This document shows positions 3 through 10,091 of a stretch of DNA of 64,000 nucleotides, piece after piece. Position 1 is the first letter of the stretch, and each line of letters opens with the position of its first letter. Below the pieces are notes generated by a model. It had not been told where the DNA came from. It ran no database searches and was given only the letters and a program-made list of their open reading frames with translations. The stretch is from Trichodelitschia bisporula (taxonomy: Eukaryota), in assembly GCA_010356995.1 (NCBI GenBank), contig ML996691.1, positions 1 to 64,000 on the forward strand. The letters run 5' to 3'. Both the position numbers and the translations under genes were made by a program.

Positions 3-809
3 ACCGGTTTCGCCCCGTTCGAGGCCACCAAGGGTTACGTGCCACGTTGGGGAATTGAGCCGCCAGAGCCCGGCGACCAGGACTTGACAGTCAAGGACAA
101 GCTGTCACGACAACAAGTTGACCGCATCATCAGCCGCATCATCAAAGTCCGCGAAACACTCAAGCATCAAATGGCCTGGGCTCAGGCTGTGCAGAAGGAG
201 TACGCGGATCGACATCGCATCCCAGCGCCCGAGTTCCGCGTTGGTGACATGGTTATGCTCGATGCAAGGAATGTTGCAACAAACCGTCCAAGCCGCAAGC
301 TCGACCACCGCAACCTGGGCCGGTTCAAAGTGATTGACATTGGAAAAAACGGTAGCGCTGTCAAGCTGGAGCTACCTCCCTCGTTCAAGATCTTCCCATG
401 GTTTCATCCGGTGCTCCTGCACCACGCGGATCCCCCGGTTTTGGGCCAAGAAGAGGAAGAGCCTGGCCCGTTGGAAGTGCACGAGGGGGAAGCGGAATGG
501 GAAGTTGAAGAGGTCTTGAATTCGCGGGTGTTCAAGGGGAAGAAAGACCCGCTGACGGGCAAAAGAGAGTACTTGCAGTACATGGTGAAGTGGAGAGGCT
601 GGCCTGATGACCGGAAGTGGTACGACTGGGATGACTTGGTGGGATGCCCGGCGTTGATAGCGGCTTTCCACCGCACATATCGATCCAAACCGGGACCACA
701 TGAGTCATTCAAGAAGTATACCTCCGAGACTTGGGATGCCTGGGAGAAGGATGTGGAGGACAACATTGCAGCAAGATTGGCCCTGATGGTGTTAAAAAAG
801 GAGGTTTGA
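3..809 (+). CDS. pol: Retrotransposon Pol C-terminus (integrase plus chromodomain), partial
   Basis: Frame open from base 3 to TGA at 807-809; GPY/F-like module and chromodomain motifs. Confidence 0.92.
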   Translation, partial: TGFAPFEATKGYVPRWGIEPPEPGDQDLTVKDKLSRQQVDRIISRIIKVRETLKHQMAWAQAVQKEYADRHRIPAPEFRVGDMVMLDARNVATNRPSRKLDHRNLGRFKVIDIGKNGSAVKLELPPSFKIFPWFHPVLLHHADPPVLGQEEEEPGPLEVHEGEAEWEVEEVLNSRVFKGKKDPLTGKREYLQYMVKWRGWPDDRKWYDWDDLVGCPALIAAFHRTYRSKPGPHESFKKYTSETWDAWEKDVEDNIAARLALMVLKKEV

Positions 810-2501: not shown

Positions 2502-2763
2502 GCCGATCAACTTGTCGATCAAAGTCGAAATGATGGTGGATGAGGTCGTCCGACCTGTATGGTTTTTATCCACCGGCTGTCGGCGTCGGCTTCAGCTTCA
2601 TGGTGTCGATACCCCGCATCACACTGTCTACCAGCCTGCCTAATCCAGTAAGACCGTGCCGCCGTGACCTGCAAGGCGGGATGCTTATCTCAACATCGGG
2701 AGCTTGGGGCGGCGTGGGGCGGCTTTAAACCAGCTCCGACCCCTCAAGGTGGGTTCGTCAGAG

Positions 2764-4493
2764 ATGTCGGAAAAAGGCGCCCTCGATTTCTCTCCGCGGC
2801 CATTGCGGCCATCGCGGCTCAATTATGGAAAATATGCCATTCTCATCATCGCCGCAGCATTCTGGCTGGTTTATGTCAGTGCACAGCGGCAAGCCTCCCG
2901 GGTTTCCCCACTTTCCGACTGTGCGCAGGTTCCGCCGGTCCTTCCCACCACCCTGCCGGAGCTTGACGAGCACCTGAAGAGTTCGGCATTTCGCAACACA
3001 TCCATCGCGCGCCTTTCCAACAGCGTCAAGATTTACACTCCATCGTTCGATGACCTCGGTCCCGTTGGCGAGGACCCTCGATGGGATGTCTTCCCGCCGT
3101 TCGCAGCGTACCTGAACGCCACCTTTCCGCGGTTGCACACCGCGCTGACGGTCGAGCATGTCAACACCCACGGCCTGCTGTACACCTGGGCCGGCTCCGA
3201 TGACGCGCTCAAGCCCATCCTCTTCATGGCGCACCAAGACGTGGTGCCTGTCCCGGACGCAACGATTCCGGACTGGACATACCCACCTTTCAGCGGCGCG
3301 TACGACGGCAAGTTCATCTGGGGCCGTGGGGCCAGCGACGACAAAAGCCAGTTGATTGCGACGCTCTCCGCGCTGGAAGCACTTCTTGACGCGGGCTTCT
3401 CTCCGCAGCGTACAATCCTCGTGGCTCTCGGCATCGATGAAGAAAGCATGGGCTTGCAGGGCGCGGGAAAGATGGGCCCGTTCTTACTGGAGCGCTACGG
3501 GCCAGACGCGCTGGCGGCGATTGTCGACGAAGGCGCAGGATTTGTCCAGAAATGGGGCACGACGCTTGCTCTGCCTGGTATTGCGGAGAAGGGGTACCTC
3601 GACGTCCAAATCGTGGTCCGCACGTTGGGCGGGCACAGCAGCATACCGCCGGCACACACGGGGATCGGGGTCATGAGCAAGCTGATTGTGGCGTTGGAGA
3701 ATGAGCCATATCACCCCGAGATTAGCGCGGAAAACCCGATCACAACGCTGCTCACCTGCGGCGCTGCGCACGGTGATGACTTCCCAAAGAAGCTCCGCCG
3801 CCTGTTGAAGGTGGGAAAGAAGCAAGTTCTCGCTCATGAGGTTGCCAAGGATCCCCAGGCAAAGTACCTCATCACGACGGCTCAGTCGGTCACCGTCATC
3901 AACGGCGGCATCAAGGCCAACGCGCTGCCGGAGAAGGTCATCGCGAACATCAACTATCGTGTCAACATCGGGTCGACAACGGACTCCGTCAAGCACAAGC
4001 TCGAAGGCATCACGCGCCGCATTGCGAAGCAGCACAACATGACGGTCGTCCCCATATCGGAGTCCGCGCCAGGTACAATCAGCATCCTGTACCACAGCGC
4101 GCTGGAGCCGGCGCCGGTATCGCCGACAGAAGGCCCTGTATGGAGCTTGATTGCGGGGACGACGCGCGCGCTGTACGGCGAGGAAGTCATTGTTGCTGGA
4201 GGTCATATGACAGGGAACACGGACACGAAGTACTTCTGGCCGCTGACAGTAAGTTTGCCTGCGTGTTTGTGGGCAAGGCTGACCGTCAGAAACACATTTT
4301 TCGCTTTGGCATGGGGTGGGATGGCTCCAGTGAAGGGTAGGTCTTCTTATTACGTGGACGATGCAGGCAGGCTAATGAATGCAGTATGGGAAACATTCAC
4401 ACCGTCGATGAGAGGGCCAGCGTCGCAGGTCATCTCAATGCCATTCGTTGGATTAGCATGTTTGTGCGGAATGCGGACGCGGCGGAGCTGTGA
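2764..4493 (+). CDS. CPS1: Vacuolar Gly-Xaa carboxypeptidase S (peptidase M20A), type II membrane anchor
   Basis: Exons 2764-4248, 4290-4336, 4385-4493. Motifs MAHQDVVP, GRGASDDK, DEES, VDEG, GGHSS, GNTDT and IHTVDE after splicing; N-terminal TM segment. Confidence 0.92.
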
Positions 4494-5411
4494 TGTGTTG
4501 CCGAAAATTGTGGATCGGACATCTCTGAGTGCGGCAGAATAGGCAGGGTGGTGTTTGTCGGAACGAGTGTCTTCCTCAGTTGCCTTAAGAGGTCGCCGTG
4601 CTAGACAATTGCTGGCGGTGGTGGCTAGATGTACGGTACCCAATCCACCGGCTCCAAGCCCTTCTCTTCACCGAACGCTTGGGCCAAGCTTCCCCGTGTG
4701 AATGACTTTCTTAGCAGCTTCAAACTCAGTCCCCATCTCCTTTCCGGCTCCATCATCCTCCCTCTGTAATCAGCCTCCGTACTGTCCACATCCCTTTCCT
4801 CCTCGTAAGTTCTCCAACCACGGTCCCCTAATCTCGCAGGTCCGTATCACTGACTTCAGTAGTGCCTACCAATAGTCGCCTAGCACCCGCCGTCGTCCGA
4901 TATCTTCTTTGAAATCCACCACAGCAGCACAATGTTCAGCATCACTTTCACGGCCCCGCGGGGTGTACCGTTCCGCGTCCGCGCCCGCGCCCGTCCCTCC
5001 CTTCCACGGCACCGGTCCGGGGTCGCCCATCTGTGACCTACACTACAGACAACGGCAGCGGCCGTAATTAGCCGTCATGCTGGGGCTATGGCATACGGTC
5101 AGCAACCGCTCATGCTGAAAGGCTCGAGATTGGGCAGTGGGGGTCCACGGATTTTAGGCTGCCTCACATCTGCGAGTTAGAGTCACAGAACAACGCTACC
5201 TGTGGAGATTACAATTAATGGGAAGCTGTTGTACTTAGGTATCTGACAACGTATGGTGACATTTCGCATGTGAATAAAATAACTACAAGTCATTTGCCAT
5301 GCATTGTGCGGCTTGTAAAGGCCTTGACTCTCCCCTCCTTTCATTCGCCACCGCCATCCCTTTGAAAGGCCGGTTTAGCCCCTGATTCACCAGTTTTTCT
5401 GCGCCTGACCC

Positions 5412-5810
5412 TCAATACTGCAGAGTGCCCGCCGTCCAGCGAGTGATCATATGGTCTCGCAGGGGCCAGGTCTTCCTGATGGCAAGACGGCGGGCACTCA
5501 TCATCAGGAAATCCCAGTTGAACGGGAGATACCCTGCCGCCACGGCCGCCCGGTTGAGCTGTGAGAGCTGGTGTTCCTCGCGCCAGTACAAGCGGCGCAT
5601 GGCACGCTTCAGCTCCCGGACAGACTCAACCGGGACGAGCGGCAGGCTATCCACCATGTCCTTCCAGAAGACCCCGCGCGGGTGCGGCGGCGGAATTGAC
5701 GGCCATGTGAGCTGTGATGCATTAATATATGTGCCGACGAAGTGCCGGAGAGGCTGTATTTTCCGGTACCAATATGGGGGGGATATTTACGAATTGACAT
5801 TTCCGCTCAT
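5412..5810 (-). CDS. Orphan small-protein family, copy A (5' structure unresolved)
   Basis: Frame reads QLTWPSIPPPHPRGVFWKDMVDSLP...RRLYWREEHQLSQLNRAAVAAG...MSARRLA...W...RW.AG..Y*. It aligns with the copies at 6058 and 6981. A putative first exon ATG(5810)..GTC AAT TC|gtaaat mirrors copy B, but I could not splice it in frame. Confidence 0.55.
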
Positions 5811-6057
5811 TGTGAAAAGCGCGTTGCTAAACGAAAGCTATGTAGCTGACTTTTTGCGATGCAACTCGTGCAGACCGGATTATGACTGCAGGGATTATGC
5901 GATCCTACATGCAAATGTCGCTCTGCAAAGGATGATGACAATTGAATTTGGTCTCAAGAGTAAATCATAGCTCAGCGCGACATACACGCTCCTCGCTGCA
6001 TTGAACCCCAACTTGCTTCCATACGCAACGTTGCAAGACTCAATACGTTGGTTCAGT

Positions 6058-6263
6058 TTAGTAAATTAGGGCTCCCGACACCCAGTGCTCCAACATGTCG
6101 TCTCTCAGCGCCCAAGCTTCGGCCACCACCAGACGGCGCGCAGACATAACAATGAACTCGCTACCGCGAGGGATGTGACCTGCAGCAACAGTGTCGCGGT
6201 CAAGCTGCGAGAGTTGCTTCTGGCGCCGCCAGTAAAGGTGATTGTAAAGCTACGGAGCAAAGA
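6058..6263 (-). pseudogene. Orphan small-protein family, copy C, 5'-truncated at an LTR
   Basis: 6249-6058 translates LYNHLYWRRQKQLSQLDRDTVAAGHIPRGSEFIVMSARRLVVAEAWALRDDMLEHWVSGALIY*. By hand count it has 31/59 ungapped identities to copy A. An in-frame TAG at 6252-6250 and the LTR at 6264 lie immediately upstream. Not in the ORF track. Confidence 0.75.
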
Positions 6264-6408
6264 TGTCAGGGACTGCGGGTAAGTAGGCCTAGTGTGTGAG
6301 TGTGAGTGCGGCGGCTTGGCACAGCGCCAAGCCCCACATAAACCCGGTGATGGTGCGAACCCATGGAGCTGCAGAACCGGGTGTAATACCGTGACACCCC
6401 CCCCCCTT
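6264..6408 (-). mobile_element. Short 3' LTR (6396-6264, 133 bp) with polypurine tract; remnant of a second LTR element
   Basis: The minus strand reads AAGGGGGGGGGG|TGTCACGG...GTCCCTGACA (PPT, then TGTCA...TGACA termini). Internal hairpin GGCTTGGC-N5-GCCAAGCC at 6313-6333. No partner LTR or pol found. Confidence 0.75.
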
Positions 6409-6980
6409 GCCTATATCGGCGAGAAGCCCGAGTACTCGGGCCCTACATGGACGTACTGTTAGTTTAGTCCTTCAGACACTTGTCCGGCGAAATTTGATTC
6501 TGCTGGCCACCCCGACTCAAAGCGGGACGCTTAAGAGATACTCGTAATGGAAACTCGACAGAGATGGACTTAAGAGACGCAAACAGAAGAGCGCGTAAAG
6601 ACGCCGGAGGAGGACACATGCAAAAAGGTTCAAAGAATGTCGCTCACAGAGAAGCTCAGGAGCGACACGTGCAGAGACGCTCATAGAGACGCTCAAGTGT
6701 TGCTCGAAGAGGAACGCATAGAACGCTCATGGAAGGACGTACAAAGACGCATCCCTTGCGTGCTTGCCCGAATGCACGCACAAAAGGGTTTCAACACGTA
6801 CGAAAGTTTAGCATGCAAGAAAGTCGTCGACGCGTAAGACAGTCTGATTACTGAAATTTTTTGACGACTCAATATTCATCAAGACGTAAACTCCTCATGA
6901 GTAAAAAGACGAGGGTGGTGTAGAGCAAGGTCCTCCACCGTGCAATGAAGGGGCCGACAGTGTCGAGGATGACACGGCGG

Positions 6981-7578
6981 CTACGAAAACCGATGTTTCA
7001 TCCCAGCCAGAACCCACCTCCCGTACATGACGTTCACCTCATGTGCAGTCGCAATTGCGGCGAGGCGGCCGGCATCCTTAGCAATGACGTCGCGAGGACG
7101 CGCCTGCCCACCCTCCGCCACAATGGCCGCGTTGATGGTGGTAAGTTTCTTGCGGATGCTCCAGTACCACCGCTTCGAGGCGAGGCGCGCATCGTTGACG
7201 AGATTGTGGGGGAAGCTGGCGGGGAGACTGTCTCGAATCGCGGCCCAGCCGTTGCCGCGGGCGGGAGCCGGCGGAATCACTGGCCAAGTGACCTGTAGGA
7301 TATCAGTGGATATGCCGAAAGGGGTATGCCAAAAATGATACGCTGAAAAAGCGTGCCGCGTAACTATGGTCAGAAAGGCGCAGCGGTGTAGGTGTAAAGA
7401 GTGCTGCTAAGATATTTATCGACCGCGTGTGTCATGTAAGAGAATATGTTTGATTTGTGCTTACTCCGTTGGCCGGGCTATATATGTTAGCTTCTGATTC
7501 CCGGCCCTATAACTATGGGCGTATTTACACATTAACCGGTAGAAGGCTCGCTGGCGGACCGCCCTGAGTGGAGGCCAT
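6981..7578 (-). CDS. Orphan small-protein family, copy B (~124 aa, best intact candidate)
   Basis: Model: exons 7578-7529, 7477-7465 (13-nt micro-exon) and 7292-6981; donors GTAAAT/GTAAGC, acceptors CTAAC..TAG and CTGAT..CAG. Gives MASTQGGPPASLLPVNVPANGVTWPVIPPAPARGNGW...DSLP...RWYW...INAAIVAEG...AGRLA...RW. The second acceptor could instead be at 7407/7404. Confidence 0.6.
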
Positions 7579-7591
7579 TGTAAGGAGAGAT

Positions 7592-7778
7592 TGTGTGTTG
7601 ATTGTGTTGTGTGTTGTGTGTTGATTTTGTGGTATGGAGGGTGCGTGGTGTGGAGGGTGCTGTGTGTTGATGGTGTGGTGTGTTGATTTTATGGTATGTT
7701 GATTTTGTGGTATGGAGGATGTGTGGTGTGGAGGGCGTGTGGTGTGGAGGGCGTGTGGTGTGGAGGGCGTGTAGTGTG
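7592..7778. repeat. GT-rich minisatellite
   Basis: GTGTGGTGTGGAGGGC x3 exact (7721-7768), TGTTGATTTTGTGGTATGGAGG x2 (7619-7640, 7697-7718), plus degenerate units. Confidence 0.9.
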
Positions 7779-8038
7779 CAGGTGTAAGGTCTAGGAGAAC
7801 TATTCATTTGTCAAGAAGCTGTATGCTTGATGGCCAAGCCGTGATGGCGGCGCTGGAACCACGGCTGCTAAAGGACAGTCGAAAAACCCCGCCAAGAACC
7901 AGCTCTCCGTCCCCTTTTCAATGGCCCAAGCCCTTTCCTTGAGACCGCAGCCTTGCCGCAAGAATCCAATCAAACAAGAACACCTAGATATGACGCCTAG
8001 AACTTCCAGCCTACTGTGACCACGCAAAGGGTAAAGCT

Positions 8039-9495
8039 TCACGCTTCTTTGCTCAGCACGTCCTCCTCATCCAGCGGCTTCGGCTTCAGATTCGCCAAAC
8101 AGGGCGCGTGAAACAGCTTGCCCGTCCATACGCCCTTGACTGTGCCCGCTGCAACGACAAACCAGAGCAAAATGACGCAGCAGTTGAAGATCTGACTCCA
8201 TTAGCTCGTCTGCCAAACAGCGCCCAAGCAGCGTCACTTACCATCCCCAGCACGCGGAAGAAACGCGACGGGAACTCCTGCCCCAGCAGCACCGTGCTGG
8301 CCGCATACACACCGAGCGGGAACACAAATCCCCACCAGCCCATGTTGAACGGAAACCGGCCGGACTGCAGGACCGTTGCGAGCGCGAAGAACAGCCACAC
8401 CAACCCAAAGGCCCACATGATGAGTGAGAGGAAGAAGCCGAAGAGGTACGCGAATTGCCCAGCCATTGGGTCGACGGCGCCGACCAGCGGGAACACCTTC
8501 TGCGCGACCTTGCCCAGGTACAGGATCCTGCGACGTCAGCCTCCCTTCCTTCTTGGTTCATCTTTCTTGACCCACCCGAAGCCTCCGAAGCCCAGCGGCC
8601 CCAGCGGCAGGCAGCAGCTCGCAATCGCTTCGCGCGGCGGCAGCTTATGCACCGCCAGCCGTTGATAGTAGATTACGAGAATCACCAGCGCCAGCGGTAG
8701 GCCCATGCCCCACAGGATGTACGACGCGACGAGCGTGCCGAACGCACGCTGCGGATGGGGCAGCACCTCGGCGACGCGCGCTCCAACGCCGCCGGCAACC
8801 ACCATCGCCGCTACCGGCAAGAGCTGTACAGCAGTAATACGCTCGAGCGACTTGATGTAGTTTGTAGACATCCTAATCATCAGCATGGCTCTTCTCAAAA
8901 AAGAAATCGGGCACTAACAGTAGGAACGGCAGCATGACGGCGACAGCTACAGCCACCACCGCGTCAATGATCCATACCCCCCACACAAACGTCACCGCCC
9001 AGGGGCCCCATGCTGGCACGCATACGAGCGTCCACATCTGGATCAGGGTCGCAAGGCCCATTGGGACGGTCCCGAGGAACAGCGAGTTGACCGGGTCGCG
9101 GACCATCACGCCCCAGCACTCGGGGTACAGTGTGTAACGCAAGATAGAAATGCCGAGAGCTAAGCCGAACAACAGCGCGTTGAGAGCGAAGAAGACAATG
9201 GACGGATAGTAAAGCTCGTGTGCGCCGTACGGCATGTTGTGTAGTAGGACGCCGACAATGCCGGTGCCCATGATGACGGAGAACCATCTACGCGATTAGC
9301 CCCATCTCAACTTCCACAATAAACCTACGAGGGCGTGAAGTTGCGCACCACGCGCCGCCAGCCGGCATCGTATTTGGCGAGGGGCATGAGGGGCTCCGGC
9401 TCCGGCCAACTGGACTTTCGGCCACTTGGGACTGCATGGGGCGGTACGGCCAACGTACTCTCGGGGAGGGGCATAGTGGGTGTGTTCGTCGCCAT
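8039..9495 (-). CDS. SSU1: Sulfite efflux pump / TDT (SLAC1, C4-dicarboxylate) family transporter
   Basis: Introns 9288-9328, 8873-8918, 8528-8575, 8192-8241. Motifs FTPSWFSVIMGTG, QRLAVHKLP, LPLGPLG, FNMGWWGFVFPLG, LFHAPCL. Start could be 9504, 9495 or a later ATG; TATAAA on the minus strand at 9535-9530. Confidence 0.88.
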
Positions 9496-10091
9496 CGCTT
9501 GCATATTTTTCAGGGCCGCCACCGTGAGCTTTATAGAGGCGGAATCAGAGCACGAAGGCGGAGCCCTTCAGGGACGGAGCTGCATCACGGCGGCATCAAA
9601 GGCGGCATCAAGGCGGCAGGTGCCATTGCGTAAGCGACTTCGCTGCAGGTGAGTCAGCGGGCAGCGGCGCATTTCCGGGGGAGTTCAAGCATTTAGAGGA
9701 GGTGAAACAATGCAGAGAGATGAGGAATCGAGCTGACTATTGATATGTAGATGAATTTTCCGATGCCCCAAGAGACCACCGTCGTTGTCGTTGCAACAAG
9801 CTAAGGAATCCATAGAAGCTAGACCGGACGCCTCAGGGCCTCCAGATGTGGTCAAGCACCAGCAATAATGTTGGCCTAATGTGCCTGGCTTGAAGCCGCC
9901 GCCATGGCTGACAGTGTCAAAATGTCTTTGCTCAAAACCCCGGCAATATGTGTGGCGAGGGAGGCAGTCAATTTTGTACAGTACCAGCCCGGCTGCAGAC
10001 GCCAAGCCCACACCAAAATTCACCCAACTTTTCTCAAGCCAAATTTCTCCACCACCTTCAACCGTCACCTCCACCTCAAATCACCCACACC

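Follow-up and report, generated by a model that had tools for sequence, protein, structure and literature searches.

One intact three-exon gene and two decayed paralogs of a small gene family in Trichodelitschia bisporula

Results

Three homologous segments between two housekeeping genes

The window, by which we mean the whole 64,000-nucleotide stretch analyzed, contains three homologous minus-strand segments, copies A, B and C, that lie between an M20 peptidase (database name carboxypeptidase S) on one side and a SLAC1/TehA-family transporter on the other (Table 1). The transporter family is that of yeast Ssu1; the original prediction had placed the array between CPS1 and SSU1. All three segments are at the predicted positions. 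Copies A and C align without gaps at 31/59 identities (E 9e-23), reproducing the predicted count, and have the G.L.Y-stop ending in common. Copy B is more distant from A (35/101 identities, one gap, E 2e-15), yet the N-terminal block proposed as common to the two, TWPxIPP..RG..W...DSLP, lies inside their alignment. B and C gave no direct BLASTP alignment and a tblastn E of 0.034-0.14 at best, so their kinship runs via A. A tblastn search for a further copy within the window returned nothing better than E 0.6, and the three copies show no similarity to one another at the nucleotide level and no common flanking DNA.

Table 1. Features of the array interval, in window positions
Feature	Position	Strand	Details
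Copy A exon 2	5412..5711	-	99 conserved-frame codons (5415-5711) and stop TGA 5412-5414
Copy A intron	5712..5790	-	79 nt; gtaaat...cacag; X1 and X2
Copy A exon 1, coding part	5791..5810	-	ATG 5810-5808; 20 nt; phase 2
Copy C	6058..6249	-	63 codons (6061-6249) and stop 6058-6060; start absent
Copy B exon 3	6981..7292	-	103 codons (6984-7292) and stop TAG 6981-6983
Copy B intron 2	7293..7464	-	172 nt; gtaagc...ctgat...cag; 7292 joined to 7529 with the micro-exon between
Copy B micro-exon	7465..7477	-	13 nt; restores the frame from exon 1 to exon 3
Copy B intron 1	7478..7528	-	51 nt; gtaaat...ctaac...tatag; spliced out in an X1 contig, with CT..AC at its ends on +
Copy B exon 1, coding part	7529..7578	-	ATG 7578-7576; 50 nt; ends in phase 2
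CA-rich tandem repeats, 16 nt	7591..7782		part of the copy B leader, in the gap that separates B from where the upstream transporter transcript ends

The genes around the array are housekeeping genes, and its description as lying next to retroelement debris proved loose. The sole retroelement signal in the window, a Chromo domain with a Tf2-type SH3 tail at 3-806, is ~4.6 kb away with two genes between, and none falls in the array interval. Homology to reverse transcriptase (RT), integrase, gag or chromodomain, as expected of an LTR retroelement protein, was found neither in copies A, B and C nor in the interval. Among 40 of the 46 ORFs of at least 50 aa in the interval, the best Pfam match was no better than E 0.035.

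Copy B is an intact, spliced gene

The RNA evidence consists of contigs of two runs, X1 and X2, from one sample of one study. We read them as transcript assemblies because GT..AG introns of the two flanking genes are likewise missing from these contigs; their RNA nature is thus a program's guess combined with this inference. Contig depth was 2-13 over the array and ~190-1160 over the flanks, values that are unusable for ranking genes or for expression level, and low or zero contig cover, such as that of X1 at 6938-7178, carries no evidential weight.

Both B and A occur in spliced form in these contigs, their introns having GT..AG ends when read on the minus strand. The V-N-x/gtaaat donors predicted for the two copies exist in the sequence and are used in X1 and X2 contigs, and both junctions predicted for B, 7528-7478 and 7464-7293, are matched exactly to the base. 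The exon 1 donor of B joins 7529 to 7477 in X1; in X2, the contig carries 13 letters between 7529 and 7292 that are the reverse complement of 7465-7477. It is this micro-exon that places ATG 7578 in frame with the conserved exon, giving a spliced ORF of 124 aa, intact across three exons and two introns. The start context is ACAATGG, with no upstream ATG in 222 nt. The 5' leader extends to at least 7741 (X1 record 2 spans 7548-7741), and contig cover of the 3' UTR reaches 6903 or further (6903-7292 is collinear in X2 record 6). The 141-codon open frame of B has a chance probability of ~0.006, its GC3 is 0.73 vs 0.74 in the carboxypeptidase, and its GC by codon position is gene-like. With a spliced transcript and an intact ORF in the contigs of one sample, copy B is probably an expressed protein-coding gene. 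The conserved exon of A, B or C is not covered by any protein in the profile-searched database.

As a separate observation, one X1 contig matches 6336-6396 alone; its flanks do not match there, and neither flank is present elsewhere in the window.

Copies A and C are decayed

Copy A is decayed: after the observed splice its ATG is out of frame, in contrast to the intact paralog B. Its start context, CACAATGAG, resembles that of B, and the joint from 5791 to 5711, present in both runs, is the sole junction seen. The loss of frame follows from the 79-nt intron having no micro-exon; reading the intron sequence, we found no canonical GT/AG pair that could supply a frame-restoring one. The conserved frame stays open after the splice, and the sole possible start in it is an internal Met (81 aa).

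Could copy A nevertheless be functional, either as an 81-aa hairpin-only protein from the internal Met or with its frame restored in an unseen isoform? Its 124-codon open frame (chance ~0.011), a GC3 of 0.80, the highest among the three copies, and an N-terminal block that is intact and common to B all speak for this, as does a Met two residues before LYW in both A and P0002, a same-species protein described below. Given the open frame and the high GC3, the break may be very recent, or A may be used by an unseen route. However, the sole junction in both runs leaves the first ATG, which has good context, on a 40-codon out-of-frame ORF overlapping the internal Met, and a canonical splice pair for a micro-exon is missing. 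We therefore regard a functional copy A as unlikely.

Copy C is a decayed 3' fragment that is startless and has no N-terminal block. Four codons ahead of its conserved LYW there is an in-frame stop (6250-6252). In a six-frame search across 4543-8085, a profile built on the A/B block matched just A and B and nothing for the N-terminal half of C. Contigs with the splice junction of A also cover C. With A frame-broken and C a startless 3' fragment, the array is one gene and two relics rather than three genes. The predicted divergent, locally duplicated family without recognizable relatives stands, but its count of three genes does not, the intact spliced ORF being confined to B; the birth-and-death signs it described are present as one intact and two decayed copies.

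Relatives of the family and a possible link to MULE transposons

Compared with all 24,736 Pfam-A models, the cores of A, B and C matched no family even at E up to 1, and the best sequence match in the PDB reached E 0.14 (profile A2, 177,635 distinct chains). A word-indexed protein search with the B core produced 20 candidates, 0 of them at E 0.01 or better, and none of 146 pattern matches to copy A in metagenome contigs was confirmed. The ESM Atlas was uninformative: recognition stayed below the usual mark, and unnamed clusters, bacterial or viral, filled the top rows. Three matches at E 0.001 or better came from a profile search of 1.84 billion protein representatives, of which P0002 is the sole true one. 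P0001 and P0003, both long and rich in internal repeats, matched in seven stretches each and were judged spurious on reading. No homolog outside T. bisporula was found among the 1.84 billion proteins, and among papers under the species name, titles and abstract openings mention no work on the array locus. The earlier statement that no family could be recognized is thus borne out for Pfam and PDB sequences, with the P0002 fragment as the one addition. Judging from these sequence searches, the family appears so far to be known from T. bisporula alone. In a database comparison the carboxypeptidase S exon in the window was 100% identical to T. bisporula, and the next relative was 53-55% identical; the host is thus phylogenetically isolated, and the orphan status may partly reflect few sequenced relatives.

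P0002, labelled 'MULE transposase domain-containing', is mis-modelled, and only its residues 1-34 are a family fragment, at 55% to C (E 2.6e-8) and 49% to A (E 4.9e-7). A fourth family fragment lies elsewhere in the genome, sharing its gene model with a remnant of a MULE transposase. This sole database match, with its MULE label on a protein that begins with family sequence, invites the reading that the family is part of a Mutator-like (MULE) transposon or has been mobilized by one, as an accessory gene or a captured host fragment, with the array and the distant fragment as footprints of mobility. Yet the MULE signal of P0002 comprises just 26 residues at E 0.0055, under the Pfam cut-off, and only its first 38 residues match near the array by tblastn, with nothing past residue 38. 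The array interval contains no MULE Pfam match, no TE domains and no terminal inverted repeats, beside the copies or elsewhere in it; the copies do not have flanking DNA in common, and the neighbors are housekeeping genes. Taken together, these points make a transposon-borne family very unlikely.

The copies are old and evolved under constraint

The comparison of dN/dS between copies, run as pN/pS, gave pN below pS in all three pairs: pS 0.72 and pN 0.33 for A-C (Fisher p 7e-6), 0.64 vs 0.49 for A-B (p 0.018) and 0.65 vs 0.47 for B-C (p 0.026). These values compare paralog with paralog, two of the three being broken, and describe the family rather than selection on B itself. Synonymous sites are saturated (pS 0.64-0.72) and exceed non-synonymous ones, which points to old duplications, formerly under constraint, rather than to a young expansion. 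The excess of pS over pN in all pairs indicates that protein-level constraint acted through most of the divergence.

This constraint also bears on whether all three copies, B included, could be dead relics of an extinct family, with the RNA as low-level read-through from the transporter in which old introns are still spliced. The upstream transporter transcript ends at about 7785-7790 and the B leader begins only ~45 nt from that end, so B could ride read-through transcripts without a promoter of its own. Copy A is spliced though broken, which means that splicing is no proof of function; two of three local copies are broken, P0002 represents one or more further copies outside the array that are truncated or mis-modelled, and the 1.84 billion proteins hold no homolog beyond the species. 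Against a wholly dead family, B still has an ATG in a good start context, its two introns, the frame-restoring 13-nt micro-exon and the 124-codon ORF; its 141-codon frame would rarely be open by chance, its GC3 is gene-like, and pS exceeds pN in every pair. We consider it improbable that all three copies are relics, about as much so as a functional copy A.

B is predicted to form a dimer of basic helical hairpins

The protein encoded by B is Cys-free and basic (pI 11.2; K+R 15, D+E 6). Its highest 19-residue Kyte-Doolittle mean is 0.86, and the three copies range from 0.86 to 0.96, bearing out the earlier statement that there is no transmembrane segment. Hydropathy predicts none in B, A or C, which sets them apart from wtf-type membrane killers. 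AlphaFold2 modelled B with a pLDDT of 80.5 and a pTM of 0.65, placing helices at residues 15-22, 29-59 and 67-102; the model rests on four sequences, and long helical hairpins are prone to over-prediction. The conserved 103 residues are thus predicted to form a short helix followed by a long helical hairpin, and the mostly helical model fits the expected Trp-rich helical protein. Foldseek gave 0 matches in the PDB at E 0.001 or better. In the VIA wide comparison the best Z was 7.1 and 225 chains reached Z of at least 5, all of them long-helix arrangements, for which values below ~13 are uninformative in helical models.

Modelled as a homodimer, B scored 0.71, a value that is the model's own confidence, vs 0.00 for the best of three controls; contacts agree between runs to 91% or more, and the partner pLDDT is at least 76. 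In calibration, the dimer mark was reached by 21/30 solved one-chain pairs and 0/23 solved single chains from microbes, and by 17/29 pairs (just 1/7 of those without an older solved relative) and 0/30 single chains from eukaryotes. B is therefore predicted to form a symmetric homodimer, a four-helix bundle in which the two hairpins contact each other mainly via helix 2 of the hairpin. As the protein seems too small for a catalytic site, such a dimer would most likely act by binding, and the net charge of ~+9 suggests nucleic acid, or else an acidic surface on a protein, as the putative partner.

The original prediction had also noted a pattern typical of conflict genes (non-self recognition, meiotic drive or defense against transposable elements), which would turn over rapidly. 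A small, lineage-restricted tandem family with pseudogenised members would fit, and self-association, as predicted, could serve recognition or a poison/antidote system. However, positive selection is absent, with pN lower than pS in each pair, the duplicates are old rather than recent, the copies have neither a transmembrane segment nor a signal peptide nor any known domain of the killer or HET type, and the neighborhood is housekeeping. A conflict role is thus even less probable than a transposon-borne family, though by little.

Discussion

On balance, the interval probably holds one intact member (B) and two decayed members (A and C) of a small gene family, in which B encodes a three-exon, basic, non-membrane protein of the dimeric-hairpin type and the relics are old. 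B would have split off first, and A and C would have separated afterwards. Copy A is transcribed and spliced with its ATG out of frame, and C is a startless 3' half found in the contigs that carry the leader of A. The B dimer, if modelled correctly, may act by binding nucleic acid or an acidic protein surface. A bolder version would have B found a new family of helical-hairpin proteins that are basic and self-pairing and escape annotation because of the 13-nt micro-exon, a family wider than the species and with a conflict or transposon-linked role that explains the duplication, the decay and the MULE-side fragment; we hold this to be rather unlikely, slightly more so than a functional copy A or a dead B.

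With B, the reference genome gains a real, previously unannotated gene and a clean case of a 13-nt micro-exon that makes gene callers overlook a small gene. The array as a whole records staged decay after duplication, from intact to frame-broken to truncated. If relatives were found in other fungi, they would define a new small dimeric helical module.

Lineage-restricted genes without a known role are common in fungi, and the family resembles the orphan small gene families of filamentous fungi in being short, intron-bearing, confined to a single lineage, arranged as tandem paralogs with pseudogenes, and missed by automatic annotation. It differs from them in being old within its lineage, with saturated synonymous sites, and in having a phylogenetically isolated host. 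With the fungal meiotic drivers and incompatibility genes (wtf, Spok, HET/HeLo) it has lineage restriction, multiple copies and decayed copies in common. Whereas wtf-type killer proteins have several transmembrane segments, the array family has no transmembrane helices, and also no Pfam domain or non-synonymous excess. As in MULE/Pack-MULE-like elements, a family fragment is fused with a MULE transposase remnant in one gene model of the same genome; unlike them, the array has no transposase, terminal inverted repeat or TE domain, and B has its own start and introns.

Rop/Rom of ColE1 plasmids is a helical-hairpin homodimer that forms a four-helix bundle and binds RNA. The likeness to B is one of possible working only: B is one helical hairpin, predicted to pair symmetrically into four helices, and its basic surface would suit nucleic acid. 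B is not a member of that family and has no sequence or specific fold match, its best structural scores being those of generic hairpins. In contrast to Rop/Rom, B is eukaryotic, about twice as long, and carries an extra Pro/Trp-rich N-terminal block.

One intact gene and two broken copies

Reading the minus strand of 5000-8000, with all stop-to-stop frames, recovered the three related segments predicted between the carboxypeptidase S and SSU1-like transporter genes (copies A, B and C). A and C align ungapped at 31/59 identities (BLASTP, E 9e-23), and A and B at 35/101 identities with one gap (BLASTP, E 2e-15), the TWPxIPP..RG..W...DSLP block included, which confirmed that the homology is real and far beyond chance. 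The relation of B to C runs through A, since BLASTP gave no direct alignment of the two and tblastn only E 0.034-0.14. DNA-level repeats common to the three copies were not found, and a tblastn search of the 64-kb window for a fourth copy returned no further place better than E 0.6. Antisense open frames overlie A and B at 5386-5970 (+) and 6924-7338 (+) (194, 124 and 121 codons); they have no Pfam match, splice-site orientation favours the minus strand, and GC-rich coding sequence probably accounts for them.

Contigs from two sequencing runs, X1 and X2 (one sample, one study; the label 'RNA?' is a guess), were compared with 2600-9800. They skip ten short segments, all bounded by GT..AG in the sense of the respective gene and seven falling in the two flanking genes, and we therefore read them as transcript assemblies. 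For copy B they support the predicted junctions 7528-7478 and 7464-7293 exactly: X1 joins 7529 to 7477, and X2 joins 7529 to 7292 via 13 letters that match 7465-7477 in reverse complement. Exon 1 and this micro-exon together make 63 nt, which keeps exon 3 in the conserved frame; splicing yields a single long ORF of 124 aa, with start context ACAATGG and no upstream ATG in 222 nt. Copy B is therefore the intact gene of the array.

Features of the array and its flanking genes
Feature	Position	Strand	Basis
Left flank, M20 peptidase	2668-4542	plus	family assignment
Copy A, conserved frame	5415-5711, stop 5412-5414	minus	stop-to-stop frames read
Copy C, conserved frame	6061-6249, stop 6058-6060	minus	stop-to-stop frames read
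Copy B, conserved frame	6984-7292, stop 6981-6983	minus	stop-to-stop frames read
Copy B, micro-exon, 13 nt	7465-7477	minus	X2 contig
Copy B, exon 1, coding	50 nt from ATG 7578	minus	X1/X2 junctions
Right flank, SLAC1/TehA-family transporter	~7785 upward	minus	family assignment

X1 and X2 alike splice copy A from 5791 to 5711, removing a 79-nt intron that begins gtaaat, so the predicted donors (V-N-x followed by gtaaat) hold in A as in B. Exon 1 of A has just 20 coding nt and the micro-exon is absent, and ATG 5810 consequently opens a 40-codon out-of-frame ORF; the conserved frame has no possible start but an internal Met (81 aa), which falls within that ORF. Contigs with the A junction continue collinearly to 6248 (X1) and 6253 (X2), crossing copy C with the stop codon kept. 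The conserved part of C lacks a start and has an in-frame stop at 6250-6252, and a profile of the A/B N-terminal block, run over all frames of 4543-8085, matches nothing beyond A and B. Because the ORF of B is in frame, the ATG of A out of frame and C start-less, the array comprises intact B, frame-broken A and the 3' fragment C: the original prediction of paralogy stands, that of three genes does not.

Age and constraint

Nei-Gojobori counts gave pS above pN for A-C (0.72 and 0.33; Fisher test for pS > pN, p 6.8e-6), A-B (0.64 and 0.49; p 0.018) and B-C (0.65 and 0.47; p 0.026), which speaks against the dN/dS near 1 of dead relics. With synonymous sites saturated or close to it, the duplications must be old, and protein similarity surviving such saturation implies, on these counts, that the protein was under selection during most of the divergence time. 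We consider it unlikely that all copies are dead and owe their RNA to read-through of the upstream transporter; the end of the transporter contig lies some 45 nt from the copy B leader. GC at third positions is 0.80 in A, 0.73 in B and 0.65 in C, against 0.74 in the carboxypeptidase. At the interval's stop-codon frequency of 0.036, the chance of the open frame is about 0.006 for B (141 codons) and about 0.011 for A (124 codons); given the latter, A may have been broken recently or have some unseen continued use. That A still functions, via its internal Met or an unseen isoform, we regard as improbable.

Relatives

Database searching brought up no described family. Pfam has none for the three copies, a word-indexed protein search with B and metagenome contigs gave no relative, the PDB no match by sequence, and the ESM Atlas did not place the family. 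An A/B/C profile run against 1.84 billion representative proteins had three matches with E values of 0.001 or below. None of them reached 1e-10; A, B and C are accordingly unannotated in that collection, where their conserved exons are covered by no protein. 'Orphan' here means lacking an annotated relative. Two of the matches, long repeat proteins, were rejected upon reading. The sole true match, the hypothetical protein P0002 (293 aa), is encoded on a different contig of the same species. Its first 34 residues clearly fall in the family (C: 55%, E 2.6e-8; A: 49%, E 4.9e-7), and its remainder has no match near the array. UniRef labels it MULE transposase domain-containing; the MULE signal in it spans 26 residues at E 0.0055, under the Pfam cut-off. 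P0002 is the one protein pointing to a MULE passenger or accessory gene, a very unlikely origin; it is likely a fourth, fragmentary, decayed copy absorbed by a bad gene model fusing unrelated sequence. Copy B thus stands as a genuine small gene, unannotated and restricted to its lineage, hidden by its micro-exon and accompanied by two decayed neighbours.

Genomic neighbourhood

The large exon of the left-flank peptidase matches 'carboxypeptidase S [Trichodelitschia bisporula]' at 100% identity, which assigns the window to this species or an almost identical strain. The lineage has no close sequenced relative, since the runner-up protein is just 53-55% identical. The family of the right-flank transporter we take to be that of yeast Ssu1. 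In a Pfam scan covering 85 of the 103 ORFs of at least 150 aa in the window, almost every match was to an ordinary cellular gene (MFS, ribosomal L10e, MOSC, kinesin, MCM, GH6, amylase, M13 peptidase, P-type ATPase and others). The sole retroelement trace, and the one transposon-like signal in the window, is an open frame at 3-806 (+), the tail of a Ty3/gypsy-type integrase (Chromo, Tf2-type SH3) cut by the window edge. In the array interval the scan took in 40 of the 46 ORFs of at least 50 aa, none with a Pfam match better than E 0.035; retroelement debris thus exists in the window, and placing the array next to it was loose wording.

At 4497-5286 (+) the carboxypeptidase S contig continues ~790 nt beyond the expected stop (a position estimated using the database protein of 546 aa) and leaves out a GT..AG intron at 4805-4862, implying a long spliced 3' UTR that converges on the 3' end of copy A. 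Between the transporter transcript end (about 7785-7790) and the copy B ATG lie CA-rich 16-nt tandem repeats (7591-7782; about 5 copies at 91% match, together with degenerate periods of 16 and 62 nt), part of which is transcribed as copy B leader (X1 contig 7548-7741). Another X1 contig matches only the 60 bases at 6336-6396, its 28- and 255-letter ends being absent from the window, which suggests either a dispersed short repeat or transcription of a related locus in another part of the genome.

Predicted protein and proposed function

The copy B protein (124 aa, pI 11.2, 15 K+R versus 6 D+E, no Cys) is Trp-rich and predicted to be helical, as first proposed, with 5 Trp and three AlphaFold2 helices (15-22, 29-59, 67-102; 4-row alignment, pLDDT 80.5, pTM 0.65), and has no membrane segment, its highest 19-residue hydropathy being 0.86. 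The model predicts a long helical hairpin after a Pro/Trp-rich N-terminal stretch. Searches with it returned generic hairpins alone: nothing in Foldseek at E 0.001 or better, and a best Z of 7.1 in VIA, a second structure-comparison search, which calls such a range uninformative for helical models.

Two exon-3 products co-folded with a score of 0.71 (best of 3 controls 0.00; partner pLDDT at least 76), at least 91% of contacts agreeing between runs, across a symmetric predicted interface of residues 42-49 and 77-103. In calibration this mark was reached by 21/30 solved homodimers and 0/23 solved monomers from microbes, and by 17/29 homodimers (1/7 where no older solved relative exists) and 0/30 monomers from eukaryotes. 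The modelling lends support to a putative four-helix-bundle dimer.

The copies had been proposed as conflict genes, which we regard as improbable; positive selection, a TM segment and a known domain are all absent. B is predicted to form a basic helical-hairpin homodimer. Such a dimer, small, non-catalytic and carrying a net charge of about +9, would most likely work by binding a nucleic acid or an acidic partner protein. A structural analogy is offered by ColE1 Rop: the likeness lies in the structure, and B is no relative of Rop.
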